Below, in pieces: positions 878-52,018 of a stretch of DNA of 64,000 bases (its first letter is position 1; every line of letters begins with the position of its first letter). The DNA lies in assembly GCA_024790105.1 (NCBI GenBank), contig GCA_024790105.1_3053.1. One strand, given 5' to 3'. Both the position numbers and the translations under genes were made by a program. Source of the DNA: a phage. The notes under the pieces were generated by a model, which ran no database searches, was not told the origin of the DNA, and was given only the letters and a program-made list of their open reading frames with translations.

Positions 878-3574
878 TCAGCCAAACAGGAAGTCTAACG
901 AAGCTTTTTCTTCATAGTCCATGCCAGCCGATTCACACATACCCGCAAGCGGTTTAACAAACGATTTTTGGAACAAAGTTGAGTGGTCAATCCAAGATAG
1001 TACGTCAGAACGAATTTCTTTTGGAAGTTCTGTACCCGACGGCCAAGCAATGCACTTGTCACCAAATGGATTTCCTTCACGTAATGGAAGAACCATTACC
1101 TTATTTCCATCCAAAATTGGAGCTACACCTAGACCACTAACAGCTCGACGATAAGTTAGCACCCCACGAATGTGGAACGGGCATTTAAATCCTGGCCAAC
1201 CTTTATCATCATATTTCGCTATATCGTTCGCAGTTTTTACTTCAGCAATAACTTTATAGTCGAGTTGACGATATTCTTTCTCGAAGTTCTTGTAGTATTC
1301 TTGGACAGACTCTTCGCCTTCCTGAAGAATACGACGAATACTTTCTTCGAGAGCTTCTTGTACTGCTTTTGGTGTTGAACTCTGCTGAGTTTCCATACCC
1401 ATGATTTTTAGATGCGGTTCAGCAAATCGCTTATCTTCCATATCATAAACGTTCAGAGCATAACGCTTTTTCGCTTTCCAAAATCCACCAACGCCCTTTG
1501 AACCAAGCGGAGGGCAAGAAATAGCTTCACGGTCCATATGCATCAGATGCTCGCGGTTATTCATATAATCACATAACTCACGATATGCAACATCAATCAT
1601 AGGTTCCATCTTTTTCTTACCGAACTGATTCATGAATTCAACTAAATCGTTCTGCTCTTTGAATCGGTCAAGACCAACTTTTTCAATAACTTTATCTACG
1701 CAAACATATACCGAATCAGTATCACCTGCTGCGATGAAATCTTCATCATTAGTTCCGCATACTTTATTCAGATATTCATTAATTTTACGAGCAATCCACT
1801 GAATACCAACTTGGCCGAAAATTGTGATAGCAGTAGCATTTCGCAAATCATAGTAACGGAAATGAATATTACCAAGAGCACCATAAAGACTGTTAATAAG
1901 AATTTTACGGTTCAGCTGATTTGTATTAGCAAGTGTAGCTGCTTTTTCACATTCTTCAATCAGACTATTAAGAACAGATTCAGTATAATTCGATAGTTCA
2001 TTTAAGAAATCATCATTGAACTTAACATATCGTTCAACTTCTGGTTTAGTTGAACAAGACCCTGCGCCTTTCATAATAATCTTTTTAATAGCTTCGGCAT
2101 TCATTTCTTCAGCGAACATTTTCTTTTTCCAGTCTTTACGCTGGAAAAATACTTTAGCAATTTCCTTTGGAATGATACCTTCTTGATGCTTATCATACAT
2201 CCATCCATTCGGAGAACAAGAATATTCATCACTCGGTTTAGGAGCTGTTCCTGCGATATATTCATGAATTGGATGAACTTTAAACTGACCACGAATAGTC
2301 TCAGGACTAATGTTAACCTGACGAATAATGCTCGGATACAGAGACGTCAAGTCAAAACTCATAATATATCGACGAGCAATTGGTTTAGGTTCAAACACAA
2401 ATGCACCCGGAAAACTTTGTTTAACGTGCGAACCTTGTTGAGGAATAACCTTATGTTCACCTTTCAATGAGTTAAAAATAATAGCATCCCAAGTTTTAAT
2501 AGGACTCATTACACCGGAAAAAGGCATTTTAGCGTAATAAGACATACTTAAAACTAGATCGATAAACCCGCGAATTTTATCAATTGCTTGAACTGATTCT
2601 ACGTCAATGATGTTATAACTAATGTATCGTTGATGATTAGTCTCACGAAGTTTATTAATAGGACCGTCGTATGGTAATTTACCTTTTTTGGTTTCATGCT
2701 GAGCAACTGATTCCAAAGAGAATGACGGCAAATTAGTAAAAGCGAATTTCTTGTACAAATCTAAATAATCAAGAATAGATACGCCATCAATAGAATAAAT
2801 TTCTTTGCTACCGTACACATTTTGAATTAGTTTAGATTTTACTCGACCGATTGGAGAGAAGCGTTTCATACTACGTTCACCGAGAACCATTTTAACACGA
2901 TTCATGATATATGGAACGTCAAATCCCTCAATATTCCAACCGGTAAAAATAGCAGGTCGTTTCTGTTCCCAAAGATTAATATATTCCATGAGCATATCAC
3001 GCTCATTATCAAATGGCATATAAATTACTCGGTCAAGAATTTCTTGAGGAACTTCATCACCACCTTCACAGTCAAGCTTAGCAGCTAACTTTGCATCCCA
3101 TTTTGATACTGAACCGTACATTGAATTCAAAAGGTCGAAAACATAAAAACGATCATCAATTGAATCGTAATGAGTGATAGCATCAATTTCATATTCAGCT
3201 TTCATTGGGTCAGGAAATTTATCACCAGTAACCTCAATGTCGCAGTTAGCTACACGAACAAATTTTCGGTCATAAACAATTTCTGAACCATATGTATCAC
3301 TGATGTAAGCGAGTTTAAAATCGTTCATACCGAGAGCTTCGAGACCGATGTCTTCCATTCGCTTCATCCAGTCTCGAGCATCTTTCATTGATGGAAATTT
3401 TTGAGGAGCGCAGTTTTTACCATAGATGTCTTTGTACTTTGACTCTTCCTTACAATGTCTAAACATAGTCGGAAGATATTCTACTTCGCGAGTACGTTCC
3501 TTTCCGTTTTCATCAATATAACGTTCAACAATGTTATTTCCGACTGTTTCAATAGAGATATAAAATTCTTTCAT
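878..3574 (-). CDS. 43: DNA polymerase gp43 (family B)
   Basis: 898 aa, same length as T4 gp43; DTDS polymerase and exonuclease motifs; synteny. Confidence 0.95.
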   Translation of the reverse strand: MKEFYISIETVGNNIVERYIDENGKERTREVEYLPTMFRHCKEESKYKDIYGKNCAPQKFPSMKDARDWMKRMEDIGLEALGMNDFKLAYISDTYGSEIVYDRKFVRVANCDIEVTGDKFPDPMKAEYEIDAITHYDSIDDRFYVFDLLNSMYGSVSKWDAKLAAKLDCEGGDEVPQEILDRVIYMPFDNERDMLMEYINLWEQKRPAIFTGWNIEGFDVPYIMNRVKMVLGERSMKRFSPIGRVKSKLIQNVYGSKEIYSIDGVSILDYLDLYKKFAFTNLPSFSLESVAQHETKKGKLPYDGPINKLRETNHQRYISYNIIDVESVQAIDKIRGFIDLVLSMSYYAKMPFSGVMSPIKTWDAIIFNSLKGEHKVIPQQGSHVKQSFPGAFVFEPKPIARRYIMSFDLTSLYPSIIRQVNISPETIRGQFKVHPIHEYIAGTAPKPSDEYSCSPNGWMYDKHQEGIIPKEIAKVFFQRKDWKKKMFAEEMNAEAIKKIIMKGAGSCSTKPEVERYVKFNDDFLNELSNYTESVLNSLIEECEKAATLANTNQLNRKILINSLYGALGNIHFRYYDLRNATAITIFGQVGIQWIARKINEYLNKVCGTNDEDFIAAGDTDSVYVCVDKVIEKVGLDRFKEQNDLVEFMNQFGKKKMEPMIDVAYRELCDYMNNREHLMHMDREAISCPPLGSKGVGGFWKAKKRYALNVYDMEDKRFAEPHLKIMGMETQQSSTPKAVQEALEESIRRILQEGEESVQEYYKNFEKEYRQLDYKVIAEVKTANDIAKYDDKGWPGFKCPFHIRGVLTYRRAVSGLGVAPILDGNKVMVLPLREGNPFGDKCIAWPSGTELPKEIRSDVLSWIDHSTLFQKSFVKPLAGMCESAGMDYEEKASLDFLFG

Positions 3575-7766: not shown

Positions 7767-7774
7767 TATAAATA
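7767..7774 (+). promoter_or_regulatory. T4 late promoter TATAAATA upstream of plus-strand HNH gene
   Basis: Exact TATAAATA about 33 nt upstream of ATG at 7808. Confidence 0.5.
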
Positions 7775-7807: not shown

Positions 7808-8524
7808 ATGAATTATAAACTAATTTATGAAAAGTTAATATCTAATGCTAAATCTCGAAAACTTGATTGCTATACTGAATCTCATCACATTATACCGCGC
7901 TGTTTAAATGGAAGTGATGATGCTTCAAACTTAGTAGATTTAACACCAGAAGAGCACTATGTAGCTCATCAACTTTTAGTAAAAATTTATCCTTCTGAAC
8001 CAAAATTAGTCTATGCTGCTAACATGATGACAGTTTCTACGAAATACGCTAAACGCAACAATAAAACTTTCGGTTGGATTCGTCGTAAACTCTGGGAAAT
8101 AGAAAAGAACAAAGAATTCTCCCAGGAGACACGAAAGAAAATGTCTGATGCAGTAGCTAATAAAGCAAGACTAACTTGTCCTCATTGCGGTAAGTCTGGA
8201 TTAAGCGGGAATATGAATCGTTGGCATTTTGATAACTGCCCAAATCACCCTAATCCTAAAGTTAGACCACCAATGTCTAAAGAACACAGAAATAATATCT
8301 CAAACGGGCTTAAAGCAATCGTTCTTGAAGAAACATCCTGCGAATTCTGCGGAATGATAGGCAAGAAATGCGTTATCGCAGCGCATAGAAATTTCTGCAA
8401 GAAAAATCCAAATGGACGCAAGAAAACTGAAAAGACTGGTACTTGCGTCCATTGCGGTAAAGTTACCACTTTCGGAAATTTATCAAGGTGGCATAATGAT
8501 AACTGTAAATATAAACCTAGCTAA
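7808..8524 (+). CDS. HNH homing endonuclease with three C-terminal Cys-rich repeats
   Basis: HNH core ESHHIIPRCLNGSDDASNLVDLTPEEHYVAH; three repeats of C-x2-C-G-K...RWH-x-DNC; opposite strand to the surrounding early operon. Confidence 0.75.
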   Translation: MNYKLIYEKLISNAKSRKLDCYTESHHIIPRCLNGSDDASNLVDLTPEEHYVAHQLLVKIYPSEPKLVYAANMMTVSTKYAKRNNKTFGWIRRKLWEIEKNKEFSQETRKKMSDAVANKARLTCPHCGKSGLSGNMNRWHFDNCPNHPNPKVRPPMSKEHRNNISNGLKAIVLEETSCEFCGMIGKKCVIAAHRNFCKKNPNGRKKTEKTGTCVHCGKVTTFGNLSRWHNDNCKYKPS

Positions 8525-48004: not shown

Positions 48005-48595
48005 ATGCTCTTTACATTTTTTGATCCGATTGAATATGCGGCCAAAACGGTGAATAAAAACGCGCCGACTATTCCTATGACAGATATTTTTAGAAACTAT
48101 AAAGACTATTTCAAACGCGCTCTTGCTGGATACCGCTTACGTACTTATTATATTAAAGGTTCACCACGCCCGGAAGAATTAGCAAATACTATATATGGAA
48201 ATCCACAGTTGTATTGGGTTTTATTGATGTGTAATGATAATTATGACCCGTATTATGGATGGATTACTTCGCAAGAAGCTGCTTATCAGGCATCTATACA
48301 AAAATACAAAAACGTAGGTGGAGACCAAATAGTATATCATGTAAATGAGAACGGTGAAAAATTTTATAATTTAGTATCATACGATGATAATCCATATGTT
48401 TGGTATGACAAAGGTGATAAAGCTAGAAAATATCCTCAATATGAAGGAGCACTTGCTGCTGTTAATACGTATGAAGCTGCTGTTCTTGAAAATGAAAAAC
48501 TTCGTCAAATAAAAATAATAGCAAAATCAGACATTAATTCATTTATGAACGACCTTATACGTATAATGGAGAAATCTTATGGAAATGATAAGTAA
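48005..48595 (+). CDS. 53: Baseplate wedge protein gp53
   Basis: 196 aa, T4 length; precedes gene 5. Confidence 0.85.
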   Translation: MLFTFFDPIEYAAKTVNKNAPTIPMTDIFRNYKDYFKRALAGYRLRTYYIKGSPRPEELANTIYGNPQLYWVLLMCNDNYDPYYGWITSQEAAYQASIQKYKNVGGDQIVYHVNENGEKFYNLVSYDDNPYVWYDKGDKARKYPQYEGALAAVNTYEAAVLENEKLRQIKIIAKSDINSFMNDLIRIMEKSYGNDK

Positions 48596-50309
48596 TAACC
48601 TTAATTGGTTTGTTGGTGTTGTTGAAGATAGAATGGACCCATTAAAATTAGGTCGTGTTCGTGTTCGTGTGGTTGGTCTGCATCCACCACAAAGAGCACA
48701 AGGTGATGTAATGGGTATTCCAACTGAAAAATTGCCATGGATGTCAGTTATTCAGCCTATAACTTCGGCAGCTATGTCTGGAATTGGAGGTTCCGTTACT
48801 GGACCGGTAGAAGGAACTAGAGTTTATGGTCATTTTTTGGACAAATGGAAAACTAACGGAATTGTCCTTGGCACGTATGGTGGAATAGTTCGCGAAAAAC
48901 CGAATAGACTTGAAGGATTTTCTGACCCAACTGGGCAGTATCCTAGACGTTTAGGAAATGATACTAACGTACTAAACCAAGGCGGAGAAGTAGGATATGA
49001 TTCATCTTCTAACATTATCCAAGATAGTAACTTAGACACTGCAATAAATCCTGATGATAGACCACTATCAGAGATTCCAACTGATGATAATCCAAATATG
49101 TCAATGGCTGAAATGCTTCGCCGTGATGAAGGATTAAGACTAAAAGTTTATTGGGATACCGAAGGATATCCGACAATTGGTATTGGTCATCTTATCATGA
49201 AGCAGCCAGTTCGTGATATGGCTCAAATTAATAAAGTTTTATCGAAACAAGTTGGTCGTGAAATTACTGGAAACCCAGGTTCTATTACAATGGAAGAAGC
49301 GGTAACTTTATTTGAACGCGATTTGGCTGATATGCAACGTGACATTAAATCACATTCTAAAGTAGGACCAGTCTGGCAAGCTGTCAACCGTTCTCGTCAA
49401 ATGGCATTAGAAAATATGGCATTTCAGATGGGTGTTGGCGGTGTAGCTAAATTTAACACAATGTTAACTGCTATGTTAGCAGGAGATTGGGAAAAAGCAT
49501 ATAAAGCTGGTCGTGATTCATTGTGGTATCAACAAACAAAAGGCCGTGCATCCCGTGTTACCATGATTATTCTTACGGGGAATTTGGAATCATATGGTGT
49601 TGAAGTGAAAACTCCAGCTAGGTCTTTGTCGGCAATGGCTGCTACTGTGGCGAAGTCTTCTGATCCAGCTGACCCTCCTATTCCAAATGACTCAAGAATT
49701 TTATTCAAAGAACCAGTTTCTTCATATAAAGGCGAATATCCTTATGTGCATACAATGGAAACTGAAAGTGGACATATTCAGGAATTTGATGATACCCCTG
49801 GGCAAGAACGATATAGATTAGTTCATCCAACTGGAACTTATGAAGAAGTATCACCGTCAGGGAGAAGAACAAGAAAAACTGTTGATAATTTGTATGATAT
49901 AACCAACGCTGATGGTAATTTTTTGGTAGCCGGTGATAAAAAGACTAACGTCGGTGGTTCAGAAATTTATTATAACATGGATAATCGTCTTCACCAAATA
50001 GATGGAAGCAATACAATATTTGTACGTGGCGATGAAACTAAGACGGTTGAAGGTAATGGAACTATCCTAGTTAAAGGTAATGTTACTATTGTAGTTGAAG
50101 GTAATGCTGACATTACAGTTAAAGGAGATGCTACTACTTTAGTTGAAGGAAATCAGACTAATACAGTAAATGGAAATCTTTCTTGGAAAGTTGCTGGGAC
50201 AGTTGATTGGGACGTTGGTGGTGATTGGACAGAAAAAATGGCATCTATGAGTTCTATTTCATCTGGTCAATACACAATTGATGGTAGCCGTATAGACGTA
50301 GGTTTATAA
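48579..50309 (+). CDS. 5: Baseplate hub / tail-associated lysozyme gp5
   Basis: MEMISNNLNWFVGVVED N-terminus, internal lysozyme domain (DEGLRLKVYWDTEGYPTIGIGHL), C-terminal VxGxxxxx beta-helix repeats; matches T4 gp5 as recalled. Confidence 0.95.
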   Translation: MEMISNNLNWFVGVVEDRMDPLKLGRVRVRVVGLHPPQRAQGDVMGIPTEKLPWMSVIQPITSAAMSGIGGSVTGPVEGTRVYGHFLDKWKTNGIVLGTYGGIVREKPNRLEGFSDPTGQYPRRLGNDTNVLNQGGEVGYDSSSNIIQDSNLDTAINPDDRPLSEIPTDDNPNMSMAEMLRRDEGLRLKVYWDTEGYPTIGIGHLIMKQPVRDMAQINKVLSKQVGREITGNPGSITMEEAVTLFERDLADMQRDIKSHSKVGPVWQAVNRSRQMALENMAFQMGVGGVAKFNTMLTAMLAGDWEKAYKAGRDSLWYQQTKGRASRVTMIILTGNLESYGVEVKTPARSLSAMAATVAKSSDPADPPIPNDSRILFKEPVSSYKGEYPYVHTMETESGHIQEFDDTPGQERYRLVHPTGTYEEVSPSGRRTRKTVDNLYDITNADGNFLVAGDKKTNVGGSEIYYNMDNRLHQIDGSNTIFVRGDETKTVEGNGTILVKGNVTIVVEGNADITVKGDATTLVEGNQTNTVNGNLSWKVAGTVDWDVGGDWTEKMASMSSISSGQYTIDGSRIDVGL

Positions 50310-50328
50310 ATAATTCCAGAGGTGAATT

Positions 50329-51195
50329 ATGAAAAAATCTAACACAGTTCAATTTAGATACATATATAAAACAACCGTTACTAATCCGAAAGGATTAGTA
50401 CGTGTTTATATTGGTAAACATGAATCTAGATATTTTGATTTAGAAAATGATAAGTATAGAGGTTCCGGTGATTATATTAAAAAGATACGTAATAAACCTG
50501 GTTATAAAATAGATTTTGAAATAATTGAATTTGTTTCTACTTATGAAATTCTCAATTCAAGAGAAAGATATTGGATTTCGAAATATAAATCATCTGATAT
50601 TCTATGTACCAATATAAAATCCGGCGGTGATGGTTTTTCATCCGAAGATTTGAAGAGAATGTGGTCTAATCCTGAATATAGGAAAGCTCAATTGAAGGCA
50701 TTAGCTAAATCAACGTCAACTAAAGAATTTTCAGAGAAAATATCTAAAATAAACAAAGAAAGATGCGCATCGCCAGAATATCGAAAGAAAATGAGTAATG
50801 CGATGAAAACTGCTTTTGAAAATGATCCAACATTAAAAATTCGTATTTCTAATACCGTTAAATCTTTATGGAAATCCGATGAATATAGAAACAAATTAAT
50901 TAATCATCCAGGAAAAATAGAAGGAACGAAACAATCATGGAATGATCCTTTGATAAGAAAATCGAGATTAGATGCTAGAAATAAAAAACTAAGATCAGTT
51001 GAACCTTGGATTAGTATAGAAAAAGTCAAAAAACTTTGGGAGGATTTGGGAAAACCACATCCACAGAAATACAAATGGTTTAGAGAAAAAGCAATTGAAC
51101 ACGACCTCCCGGATGTAAGTTATAACGCAATTTTAAAAGCGTTGAAAAAATGTGATTATAAATTTACATCATTAGAGAATTCAACAATTGGCTAA
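50329..51195 (+). CDS. Seg-like GIY-YIG homing endonuclease
   Basis: N-terminal RYIYKTT...VRVYIGK motif; C-terminal NUMOD-like repeats (KISKINKER, KIRISNTVK). Confidence 0.65.
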   Translation: MKKSNTVQFRYIYKTTVTNPKGLVRVYIGKHESRYFDLENDKYRGSGDYIKKIRNKPGYKIDFEIIEFVSTYEILNSRERYWISKYKSSDILCTNIKSGGDGFSSEDLKRMWSNPEYRKAQLKALAKSTSTKEFSEKISKINKERCASPEYRKKMSNAMKTAFENDPTLKIRISNTVKSLWKSDEYRNKLINHPGKIEGTKQSWNDPLIRKSRLDARNKKLRSVEPWISIEKVKKLWEDLGKPHPQKYKWFREKAIEHDLPDVSYNAILKALKKCDYKFTSLENSTIG

Positions 51196-51724
51196 CATAC
51201 TTCCAATGAGCGCTGATTTAGGAGAATCCATGGAAGGTTCTTCTATCGACGTCACCTTTACCGCTCAATTAGAAACAGGTGAAACGTTAGTATCTATAAA
51301 TATAACTAGTTACGAAGAAACTCCTGGGGTTTTAGTAGAAGAAAATCGTTTATATGGAACGTATGAATCTGTATTTGGATTTGGAAATGACGCGTTGAAA
51401 TATCGTTTAGGCGATGAATTTAAAACTGCTGCTTCATGGGAAGAACTTCCTACTGATTCTGACACTCAGTTGTATTTGTGGAAAGCTCCTCAAAATCTCC
51501 AGAAGACATTCACTTACGAAGTAACATTAATATATGACTACCAAGAACAAAGTGAATCTGGAGGTTCTGGCAGTAATTCTAGGTCATCTTCTGATACTAC
51601 TGAACCGACAGATCCTCCTACTCCAGTAAGAAAAACTCTCGTTAAAAATTATACTAAAACTATAGTTGGAAATTGGAGTCGTTGGGCTAATAAATTAAGA
51701 AGCTATGTGTATGAGAGGTCATAG
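51188..51724 (+). CDS. Hypothetical baseplate-region protein (T4 5.1-like position)
   Basis: 178-aa ORF between seg-like gene and 5.4. Confidence 0.45.
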   Translation: MANILPMSADLGESMEGSSIDVTFTAQLETGETLVSINITSYEETPGVLVEENRLYGTYESVFGFGNDALKYRLGDEFKTAASWEELPTDSDTQLYLWKAPQNLQKTFTYEVTLIYDYQEQSESGGSGSNSRSSSDTTEPTDPPTPVRKTLVKNYTKTIVGNWSRWANKLRSYVYERS

Positions 51725-52018
51725 ATGTCAGGATTAAGTTATGATAAGTGTGTTACTGCTGGCCATGAAGCGTGGCCTCCAACAGTTGTGAATGCTACAC
51801 AAAGTAAAGTATTCACTGGAGGAATTGCTGTTCTAATAGCAGGCGATCCAATTACAGAACATACAGAAATCAAAAAGCCATATGAAACACATGGCGGAGT
51901 GACACAACCCAGAACTTCTAAGGTATATGTCACTGGAAAGAAAGCTGTTCAAATGGCTGATCCAATATCATGCGGTGATACTGTGGCTCAGGCATCATCT
52001 AAAGTATTCATTAAATAG
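51725..52018 (+). CDS. 5.4: PAAR-repeat spike tip protein gp5.4
   Basis: 97 aa, conserved position before gene 6; Gly/Thr-rich PAAR-like fold. Confidence 0.75.

Follow-up and report, generated by a model that had tools for sequence, protein, structure and literature searches.

The analysed window, a 64,000-nt stretch of phage DNA, is a Tequatrovirus segment resembling those of T6 and ACG-C40, and its relevant portion has the gene order 53, 5, [ORF], 5.1, 5.4, 6, 7. The ORF of interest encodes 288 residues and was located directly after the gene 5 stop codon (50307-50309), as the first-pass annotation had stated; the two are separated by 19 nt. That annotation had also placed the ORF between genes 5 and 5.4. 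The actual downstream neighbour is gene 5.1, with gene 5.4 following it. An overlap of the ORF's stop with the next reading frame, likewise reported earlier, holds for a mechanically called frame with a TTG start at 51188, but not for the annotated gene 5.1: in T6, vB_SsoM_113, and fPS-2, the start of this gene is assigned to the ATG at 51230, which has a GGAG Shine-Dalgarno sequence and lies 34 nt past the endonuclease stop. The coordinates of all features are collected in Table 1.

Table 1. Features of the gene 5/5.1 region, in window coordinates.
Feature	Position	Strand	Remarks
Gene 5, baseplate hub/tail lysozyme	48579..50309	+	576 aa; Pfam Gp5_OB, Phage_lysozyme, Gp5_C; T6 annotation
Recoded gene 5 3' end	50285..50309	+	TAGCCGTATAGACGTAGGTTTATAA (GSRIDVGL*) vs ATCGAGGATTGACATTGGCTAA (GSRIDIG*) in endonuclease-less phages
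Inserted cassette	50303..51191	+	889 nt; between GG and C-TAA of the gene 5 terminal Gly codon
T4 late-promoter consensus	50305..50312	+	TATAAATA; 17 nt upstream of the ATG; spans the new gene 5 stop
Shine-Dalgarno sequence	50319..50322	+	GAGG; 6 nt before the ATG; kept in all alleles
Seg-like homing endonuclease ORF (putative)	50329..51195	+	288 aa; ATG start
GIY-YIG catalytic domain	50353..50628	+	Residues about 9-100; YIY11-13, YIG27-29, E79, N95
Perfect 9-bp stem with GAAA loop	50379..50400	.	Codons 17-24 of the ORF
Helical repeat region	50641..51012	+	Residues 105-228; W-x-x-P-E-Y-R-x-K units at 112, 146, 180, 204
C-terminal small helical domain	51013..51192	+	About 60 residues
40-nt 3' remnant surviving in scar alleles	51156..51195	+	TTATAAAT at 51156-51163
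Original gene 5 end (Ile-Gly-stop)	51187..51195	+	ATTGGCTAA; supplies the final codons and the stop of the endonuclease ORF
Gene 5.1, downstream neighbour of the ORF	51230..51724	+	T6 annotation; PHROG 1168
Gene 5.4, PAAR spike tip	51725..52018	+	Pfam PAAR_motif

Elsewhere in the window, a 238-aa ORF (7808-8524, plus strand) was found in an orientation opposite to that of its neighbours, with a copy of TATAAATA 34 nt upstream (7767-7774). Its product had no Pfam match and matched PHROG 655 ("homing endonuclease") with E=9e-69; it is another putative free-standing endonuclease gene.

Anatomy of the insertion and expression signals

Gene 5 is the host gene of the insertion and was invaded in its last codon. 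In the empty alleles of T2, RB55 (T4-type), and AdolfPortmann, the end of gene 5 reads ...GATGG ATCGAGGATTGAC ATTGG C TAA (GSRIDIG*). The anchors are 13 nt apart in these three phages vs 902 nt in the window, where the junction reads ...GATGG TAGCCGTATAGAC GTAGG, followed by the cassette (TTTATAAATAATTCCAGAGGTGAATT ATG ... ACAATTGG) and then by C TAA. From the cassette, gene 5 gains GG-T TTA TAA (Gly-Leu-stop). The displaced original end, ATTGGCTAA, moves with the cassette into Mosigvirus backbones. The cassette terminates in ATTGG, a repeat of the 5 nt found immediately before the insertion point when the allele is empty. At the right junction, the first base past the TAA of the ORF (51193-51195) is a C at 51196, after ATTGGCTAA, and a T in all seven other phages compared; it is thus a SNP private to the window.

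The last seven codons of gene 5 were also altered, with 10 substitutions in 21 nt (TCG to AGC, AGG to CGT, etc.). These result in a single amino-acid change (Ile to Val), to which the added Leu comes. Among eight phages compared, no variation was found in the 54 nt preceding the recoded codons. In all 33 records that have the recoded end (30 occupied sites and 3 scars), it is accompanied by the ORF or by a remnant of it. From this pattern we infer that it is an altered, immune form of the homing site. The recoded codons could also be hitch-hiking sequence from an unknown donor lineage, not an immunity determinant.

Flanked by genes 5 and 5.1, the ORF stands alone: it has a Shine-Dalgarno sequence and an ATG of its own and is associated with no intron or intein. 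The new TTA-TAA-ATA of the junction creates the upstream copy of TATAAATA, which was kept at 8/8 positions in all three alleles (the adjacent bases vary). A late promoter was predicted independently at the same place by the annotators of fPS-2. Because TATAAATA was not significantly enriched across the whole window (15 found vs 10.6 expected), only the position and conservation of this copy were given weight. Another exact TATAAATA occurs within gene 5.1 (51295-51302, plus strand); it may match by chance or may serve genes 5.4 and 6 as an internal late promoter. Hairpins that sequester the ribosome-binding site are known for I-TevI, segB, and mobE. No such RNA hairpin was found for the present ORF (fold z-score -0.16), and a scan for sigma-70 promoters and terminators yielded nothing above shuffle expectation except a hairpin inside the ORF.

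The encoded protein

The ORF and its 83%-identical allele in phage F2 were compared, yielding dN/dS of 0.098 and pN/pS of 0.16 (0.19 in the nuclease half). Given these values, the ORF was judged to be translated and under selection, and not to be open by chance. The phage collection contains 33 full-length copies, all of them intact: each appears as one uninterrupted tblastn piece covering all 288 residues, and none was frameshifted.

A GIY-YIG N-terminus had been proposed in the first-pass annotation, as had a Seg-like endonuclease function, and both proposals gained support. The motifs quoted there are present in the protein, YIY at residues 11-13 and YIG at 27-29. The protein matched PHROG 314 ("homing endonuclease") with E=1e-25, and tblastn returned SegF, SegB, and many genes labeled "seg-like/intron-like endonuclease" at 28-30% identity. 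A Pfam scan of the single protein gave no GIY-YIG match at E<=1 (only a sub-threshold GerD match), and phmmer with the single protein against PDB sequences gave nothing meaningful. Because the protein alone falls under every Pfam GIY-YIG threshold, a profile was needed for the family assignment. The profile of 13 homologues matched the complete catalytic domain of I-TevI (1LN0, E=1.7e-6; 1MK0, E=3e-5). In this alignment, YIY11-13 and YIG27-29 are paired with the GIY/YVG of I-TevI, and E79 and N95 with its E75 and N90 (segments ERENFWI and GYNIA). All four of these elements were invariant across the 13 homologues, as were Y43-x-GSG47, K56, and G99-G100. Eight of the 13 family members matched PF19835 (SegE_GIY-YIG) and four matched PF01541. 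In a structure model of modest confidence (mean pLDDT 63), strands at residues 9-18 and 24-33 carry the GIY and YIG motifs on adjacent beta-strands, and the three-stranded sheet with flanking helices of the GIY-YIG fold is present; a Foldseek search with the model found no match. Judged by these matches and motifs, the protein belongs to the GIY-YIG/Seg group. The profile alignment has a gap at the segment containing R27 of I-TevI, and the counterpart of this residue could not be placed. No invariant Arg occurs between YIG and E79 in the 13-homologue family; R34 was kept only among the three close alleles.

Residues 105-228 were predicted to be all-helical. The earlier description of this part as NUMOD-like repeats stands as far as the repeats themselves are concerned: the summed score of the top five self-diagonals was 197 vs 109+-11 in shuffles, and was reached by 0 of 500. 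The NUMOD part of the description fared worse, as Pfam NUMOD3 (PF07460) had no match to the protein even at E<=1. An ad hoc HMM of the NUMOD3 unit scored the protein below most composition-preserving shuffles, and membership in NUMOD3 is not claimed. An exhaustive HMMER search with residues 101-288 returned 529 cluster representatives at E<=1e-3, most of them with several repeat stretches; the repeats recur every 17 residues and have K-x-x-W-x-D-P-E-Y-R-x-K-x-S-x3-K as their consensus. NUMOD3 has a similar period (ca. 17 residues) and the same E-x-[KR]-x-K-x-S-x3-K spacing, and in some homologues of the ORF the aligned region contains genuine NUMOD3 repeats. The units differ at their start, which is W-x-D-P in the ORF vs G-x-x-H-S in NUMOD3. 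The ORF-type repeat, like NUMOD3, is attached to many different nuclease domains. When 80 representatives were sampled, GIY-YIG was found in 20 and HNH in about 10; the other domains fused to the repeats were MTES_1575/DUF559 (PD-(D/E)xK-like), TnsA-like, endonuclease I, and Mom. In 47 of these 80, Pfam labels the repeats "GerD" (PF17898), an assignment that looks to be driven by repeat similarity and not by shared function. By sequence, then, the repeats are a nuclease-associated modular repeat with the charge spacing of NUMOD3. They presumably constitute an extended DNA-binding module, and the C-terminal ca. 60 residues are possibly helix-turn-helix-like.

The stem-loop within the ORF coincides with the beta1-beta2 turn of the catalytic domain, which is lineage-specific and 4 aa longer than in distant homologues. 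The corresponding sequence is AACCAACCC-AAAG-GGGTTGGTT in the F2/CEV1 allele and ACCAACCC-GAAA-GGGTTGGT in a metagenome allele (SRR10822052). The alleles are about 72% identical in this region; all three pairs at third codon positions change on both sides, and complementarity is kept. Pairing was observed in 96% of cells vs 11-52% with the partner slid. With three distinct sequences only, and with the same value reached by 41 of 500 shuffles, conservation of the stem by paired changes is only suggestive. Quasi-palindrome template-switch correction, which is well known in T4, could account for the stem without selection.

Distribution, transfer, and loss

The ORF was found in about 34 of roughly 630 T-even records (ca. 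5%), always at the gene 5/5.1 site. Comparison of the gene 5-6 interval with T4 and its relatives, as suggested in the first-pass annotation, revealed no counterpart at this site in T4 or T2. The flanks are present in 516 Tequatrovirus-type records, mostly at 95-99% identity, and the ORF in only 30 of these. Among the Mosigvirus-type backbones (about 155 records), the gene was found in F2 (two records), ZQ3, and partial CEV1 contigs. A third backbone type, the metagenome contig from SRR10822052, has a 78%-identical allele, located at the same junction. The same insertion site is therefore occupied in three backbone lineages. The protein is identical or at least 98.6% identical in T6, ACG-C40, D5505, FL12, fPS-2, PYPS2T, vB_SsoM_113, and others. 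Its GenBank labels vary among "hypothetical protein", "homing endonuclease", and "putative Seg-like homing endonuclease, GIY-YIG family"; the T6 record has "seg-like hypothetical protein". In searches for more divergent alleles, IMG/VR yielded one near-identical locus only, and the metagenome scan yielded only relatives of 25-36% identity. A flank haplotype specific to the carrier Tequatroviruses was considered and rejected: the flanks are finely mosaic, and only the linked sites +193 and +196 separate carriers, in a comparison of 4 carriers with 4 others that comprises too few genomes to interpret.

Two Mosigvirus-type phages have the appearance of natural recombinants, with co-converted T4-type flanks of different lengths. 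Up to CAGAAACAATG, F2 (L006, 2930-3900) does not differ from the empty Mosigvirus G2469. There it changes to Tequatrovirus-type gene 5 sequence for ca. 45 nt, followed by the recoded end, the ORF, and ATTGGCTAAT; Mosigvirus-type sequence resumes within ATACTTCC. In CEV1 (L018, 315-445), the allele is the same, and the T4-type tract on the left is shorter (about 9-17 nt). The presence of the cassette with short T4-type flanks in these backbones indicates horizontal transfer, and the tracts are the footprints that would be left if a Tequatrovirus-type donor had served in double-strand-break repair, with co-conversion. What invariably moves with the gene is a segment that begins shortly before the recoded codons and ends at the old stop of gene 5. 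From its extent, we infer a cut site no more than a few tens of bp away from the stop of gene 5. Later recombination may have shortened the donor tracts of F2 and CEV1. Further, cleavage hundreds of bp away from the insertion site is common among characterised Seg enzymes, so the target may be elsewhere.

Further exchange appears to have taken place within the gene. The T6-type and F2-type alleles (the latter at L006, 3001-3864) are mosaic, with about 72% nucleotide identity over codons 1-144, comparable to that of the flanking genes (69-79%), and 88-99% over codons 145-288; the DNA-binding half appears to have been exchanged recently.

Loss was observed as well. In four phages, ESh36 (L002, 2990-3045), 215Ecol030PP, LF73P1, and LF73P3, the recoded gene 5 end is joined directly to the last 40 nt of the ORF. 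The scar junction is the 8-bp direct repeat TTATAAAT, the copies of which are located at 50304-50311 and 51156-51163 in the window. These scars are clean deletions of the ORF that kept a presumably resistant site, and the four phages are viable after its loss. In phage SP21535 (L008), the ORF (1501-2367) is accompanied by a segC orthologue 0.5 kb downstream (2883-3473). The two genes are thus compatible.

A putative Seg-type homing endonuclease

In alleles that lack them, SegF and SegG cut an adjacent essential gene; they are then copied into the cut allele, and the flanks are co-converted. Like the ORF, they are free-standing genes between conserved genes, and SegF was a weak tblastn match of the ORF (30% identity, E=4e-5). 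They cut about 200-330 bp from their insertion sites and sit in intergenic DNA, whereas the present ORF was inserted within the last codon of its presumed target gene. Natural donor tracts of only about 10-55 nt suggest a cut close to the insertion point. I-TevI (1LN0/1MK0) resembles the protein in the fold and motifs of the catalytic domain and in its modular construction, in which a nuclease is followed by an extended linker or by repeats and then by a small DNA-binding domain at the C-terminus. It also has a late promoter (in the case of the ORF, a motif) immediately upstream of the reading frame. Unlike I-TevI, the ORF is not intronic and has no zinc finger and no RNA hairpin that sequesters the ribosome-binding site; the counterpart of Arg27 falls in an alignment gap, and the DNA-binding region is made of W-x-D-P-E-Y-R repeats.

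A near neighbour is T4 SegC, another free-standing GIY-YIG endonuclease, encoded one intergenic gap away. Identity of the ORF with segC was rejected: segC occupies the 5.1/5.4 gap, and the two proteins are 30% identical over 96 N-terminal residues only. They have in common the signature Y-[IV]-G-x-H-x-[ST]...Y-x-G-S-G...E...N-[IM]-K-x-G-G, but SegC has 198 aa vs 288 aa, and the C-terminal halves are unrelated. In T4, segC lies between 5.1 and 5.3/5.4 (PMC2988022 Table 1). It was listed as active in that 2010 review, where it is described as promoter-less and as overlapping gene 5.1 by 20 bp (PMC2988022). While segC, segF, and segG are described as promoter-less cassettes (PMC2988022), the cassette of the present ORF brings its own late-promoter motif, TATAAATA. 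Intronless homing with localized marker exclusion has been reported for SegF, SegG, SegE, and SegB of T4 (PMC2988022, PMC2330249).

The ORF probably encodes a free-standing Seg-type homing endonuclease that is made late in infection and homes into empty gene 5 ends with marker exclusion. This proposal draws on the fold and family, the coding constraint, the insertion anatomy, the patchy distribution among close relatives, the natural recombinants, and the scar alleles, all observed here. The enzyme would be made late, either from its own putative promoter or when the late transcript of genes 53/5 is extended by read-through. Its N-terminal GIY-YIG domain would act as the nuclease, and the helical repeats and the small C-terminal domain would bind DNA. 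In a mixed infection, the endonuclease-less genome of a co-infecting T-even phage would be cut at the stop codon of gene 5 or no more than a few tens of bp away. Recombinational repair from the carrier genome would then transfer the cassette, with short stretches of its flanks, to the cut genome, and the outcome would be localized marker exclusion around the gene 5/5.1 junction. The carrier allele would be protected by its seven recoded codons and by the splitting of the site by the insert. The first-pass annotation had named the ORF a plausible driver of such exclusion. Given the nuclease family, the ca. 95% absence, and the footprints of non-reciprocal transfer, localized marker exclusion is a reasonable expectation, by analogy with SegF, SegG, and SegE (PMC2988022).

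The protein might instead be an active GIY-YIG nuclease that no longer homes, retained for breaks that promote recombination or segmental amplification, for damage to host DNA, or for competition with unrelated phages. The strong purifying selection and the lack of pseudogenised copies among 33 would be in keeping with such a role, as would the coexistence with segC 0.5 kb away in SP21535. The SegB of T6 has been found to promote amplification of anti-defence loci (PMC13096335). A beneficial function, however, fits badly with the absence of the gene from ca. 95% of close relatives. The movement of the cassette with donor flanks into Mosigvirus backbones at exactly the homologous site, and the clean losses that left scar alleles, also argue against a nuclease that has ceased to home, and we regard this reading as unlikely.

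Very unlikely, in our estimation, is a DNA-binding protein with a crippled nuclease domain (an autorepressor or a remnant) that was kept because the cassette supplies the gene 5 stop and the late promoter; imprecise deletion would then damage gene 5 or the expression of genes 5.1-6. The unplaced canonical GIY-YIG arginine and the interlocking of the cassette with the end of gene 5 speak for it, and embedded promoters are held to favour the retention of T4 endonuclease genes (Edgell et al., PMC2988022). Yet none of YIY, YIG, E79, and N95 varies, purifying selection acts on the nuclease half, and the active SegC of T4 has the same H-x-[ST]...Y-x-G-S-G layout; moreover, four viable phages have cleanly lost the ORF. 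Location in the late baseplate gene block is the sole point in favour of a conserved baseplate or structural protein, the finding that was to have overturned the first-pass annotation. No such finding emerged from the database searches: ca. 95% of the T-even records with the same flanks, T2 and T4 among them, lack the ORF, and all of its homology is to nucleases. This reading is extremely unlikely.

A search of the accessible literature found no paper on this ORF and no biochemical or genetic data. The gene is new and uncharacterised, of a well-known kind, and already called seg-like in some GenBank records. It is doubtful that the stem-loop is a selected RNA or DNA element or that the 17-residue repeats form an undescribed, widespread class of nuclease-associated DNA-binding module. 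If selected, the stem-loop could attenuate expression of the endonuclease or transcription into the baseplate genes, or it could be a recombination or processing signal. Otherwise, the ORF is what specialists would expect in a T-even genome.

As a homing endonuclease, the ORF would add an uncharacterised and apparently active member to the T-even Seg group, and would do so in T6, a model phage. The candidate target is unusually well delimited: it comprises the last codons of gene 5, the essential spike gene. A second marker-exclusion hotspot would be predicted beside that of segC, with reciprocal cutting in co-infections of T4 with T6-type phages. The alleles form a natural series, from the empty site through the occupied site with a recoded target and the scar that keeps the recoded target to the transfer into a second genus, and would thus provide a compact example of the life cycle of homing endonucleases in phages.
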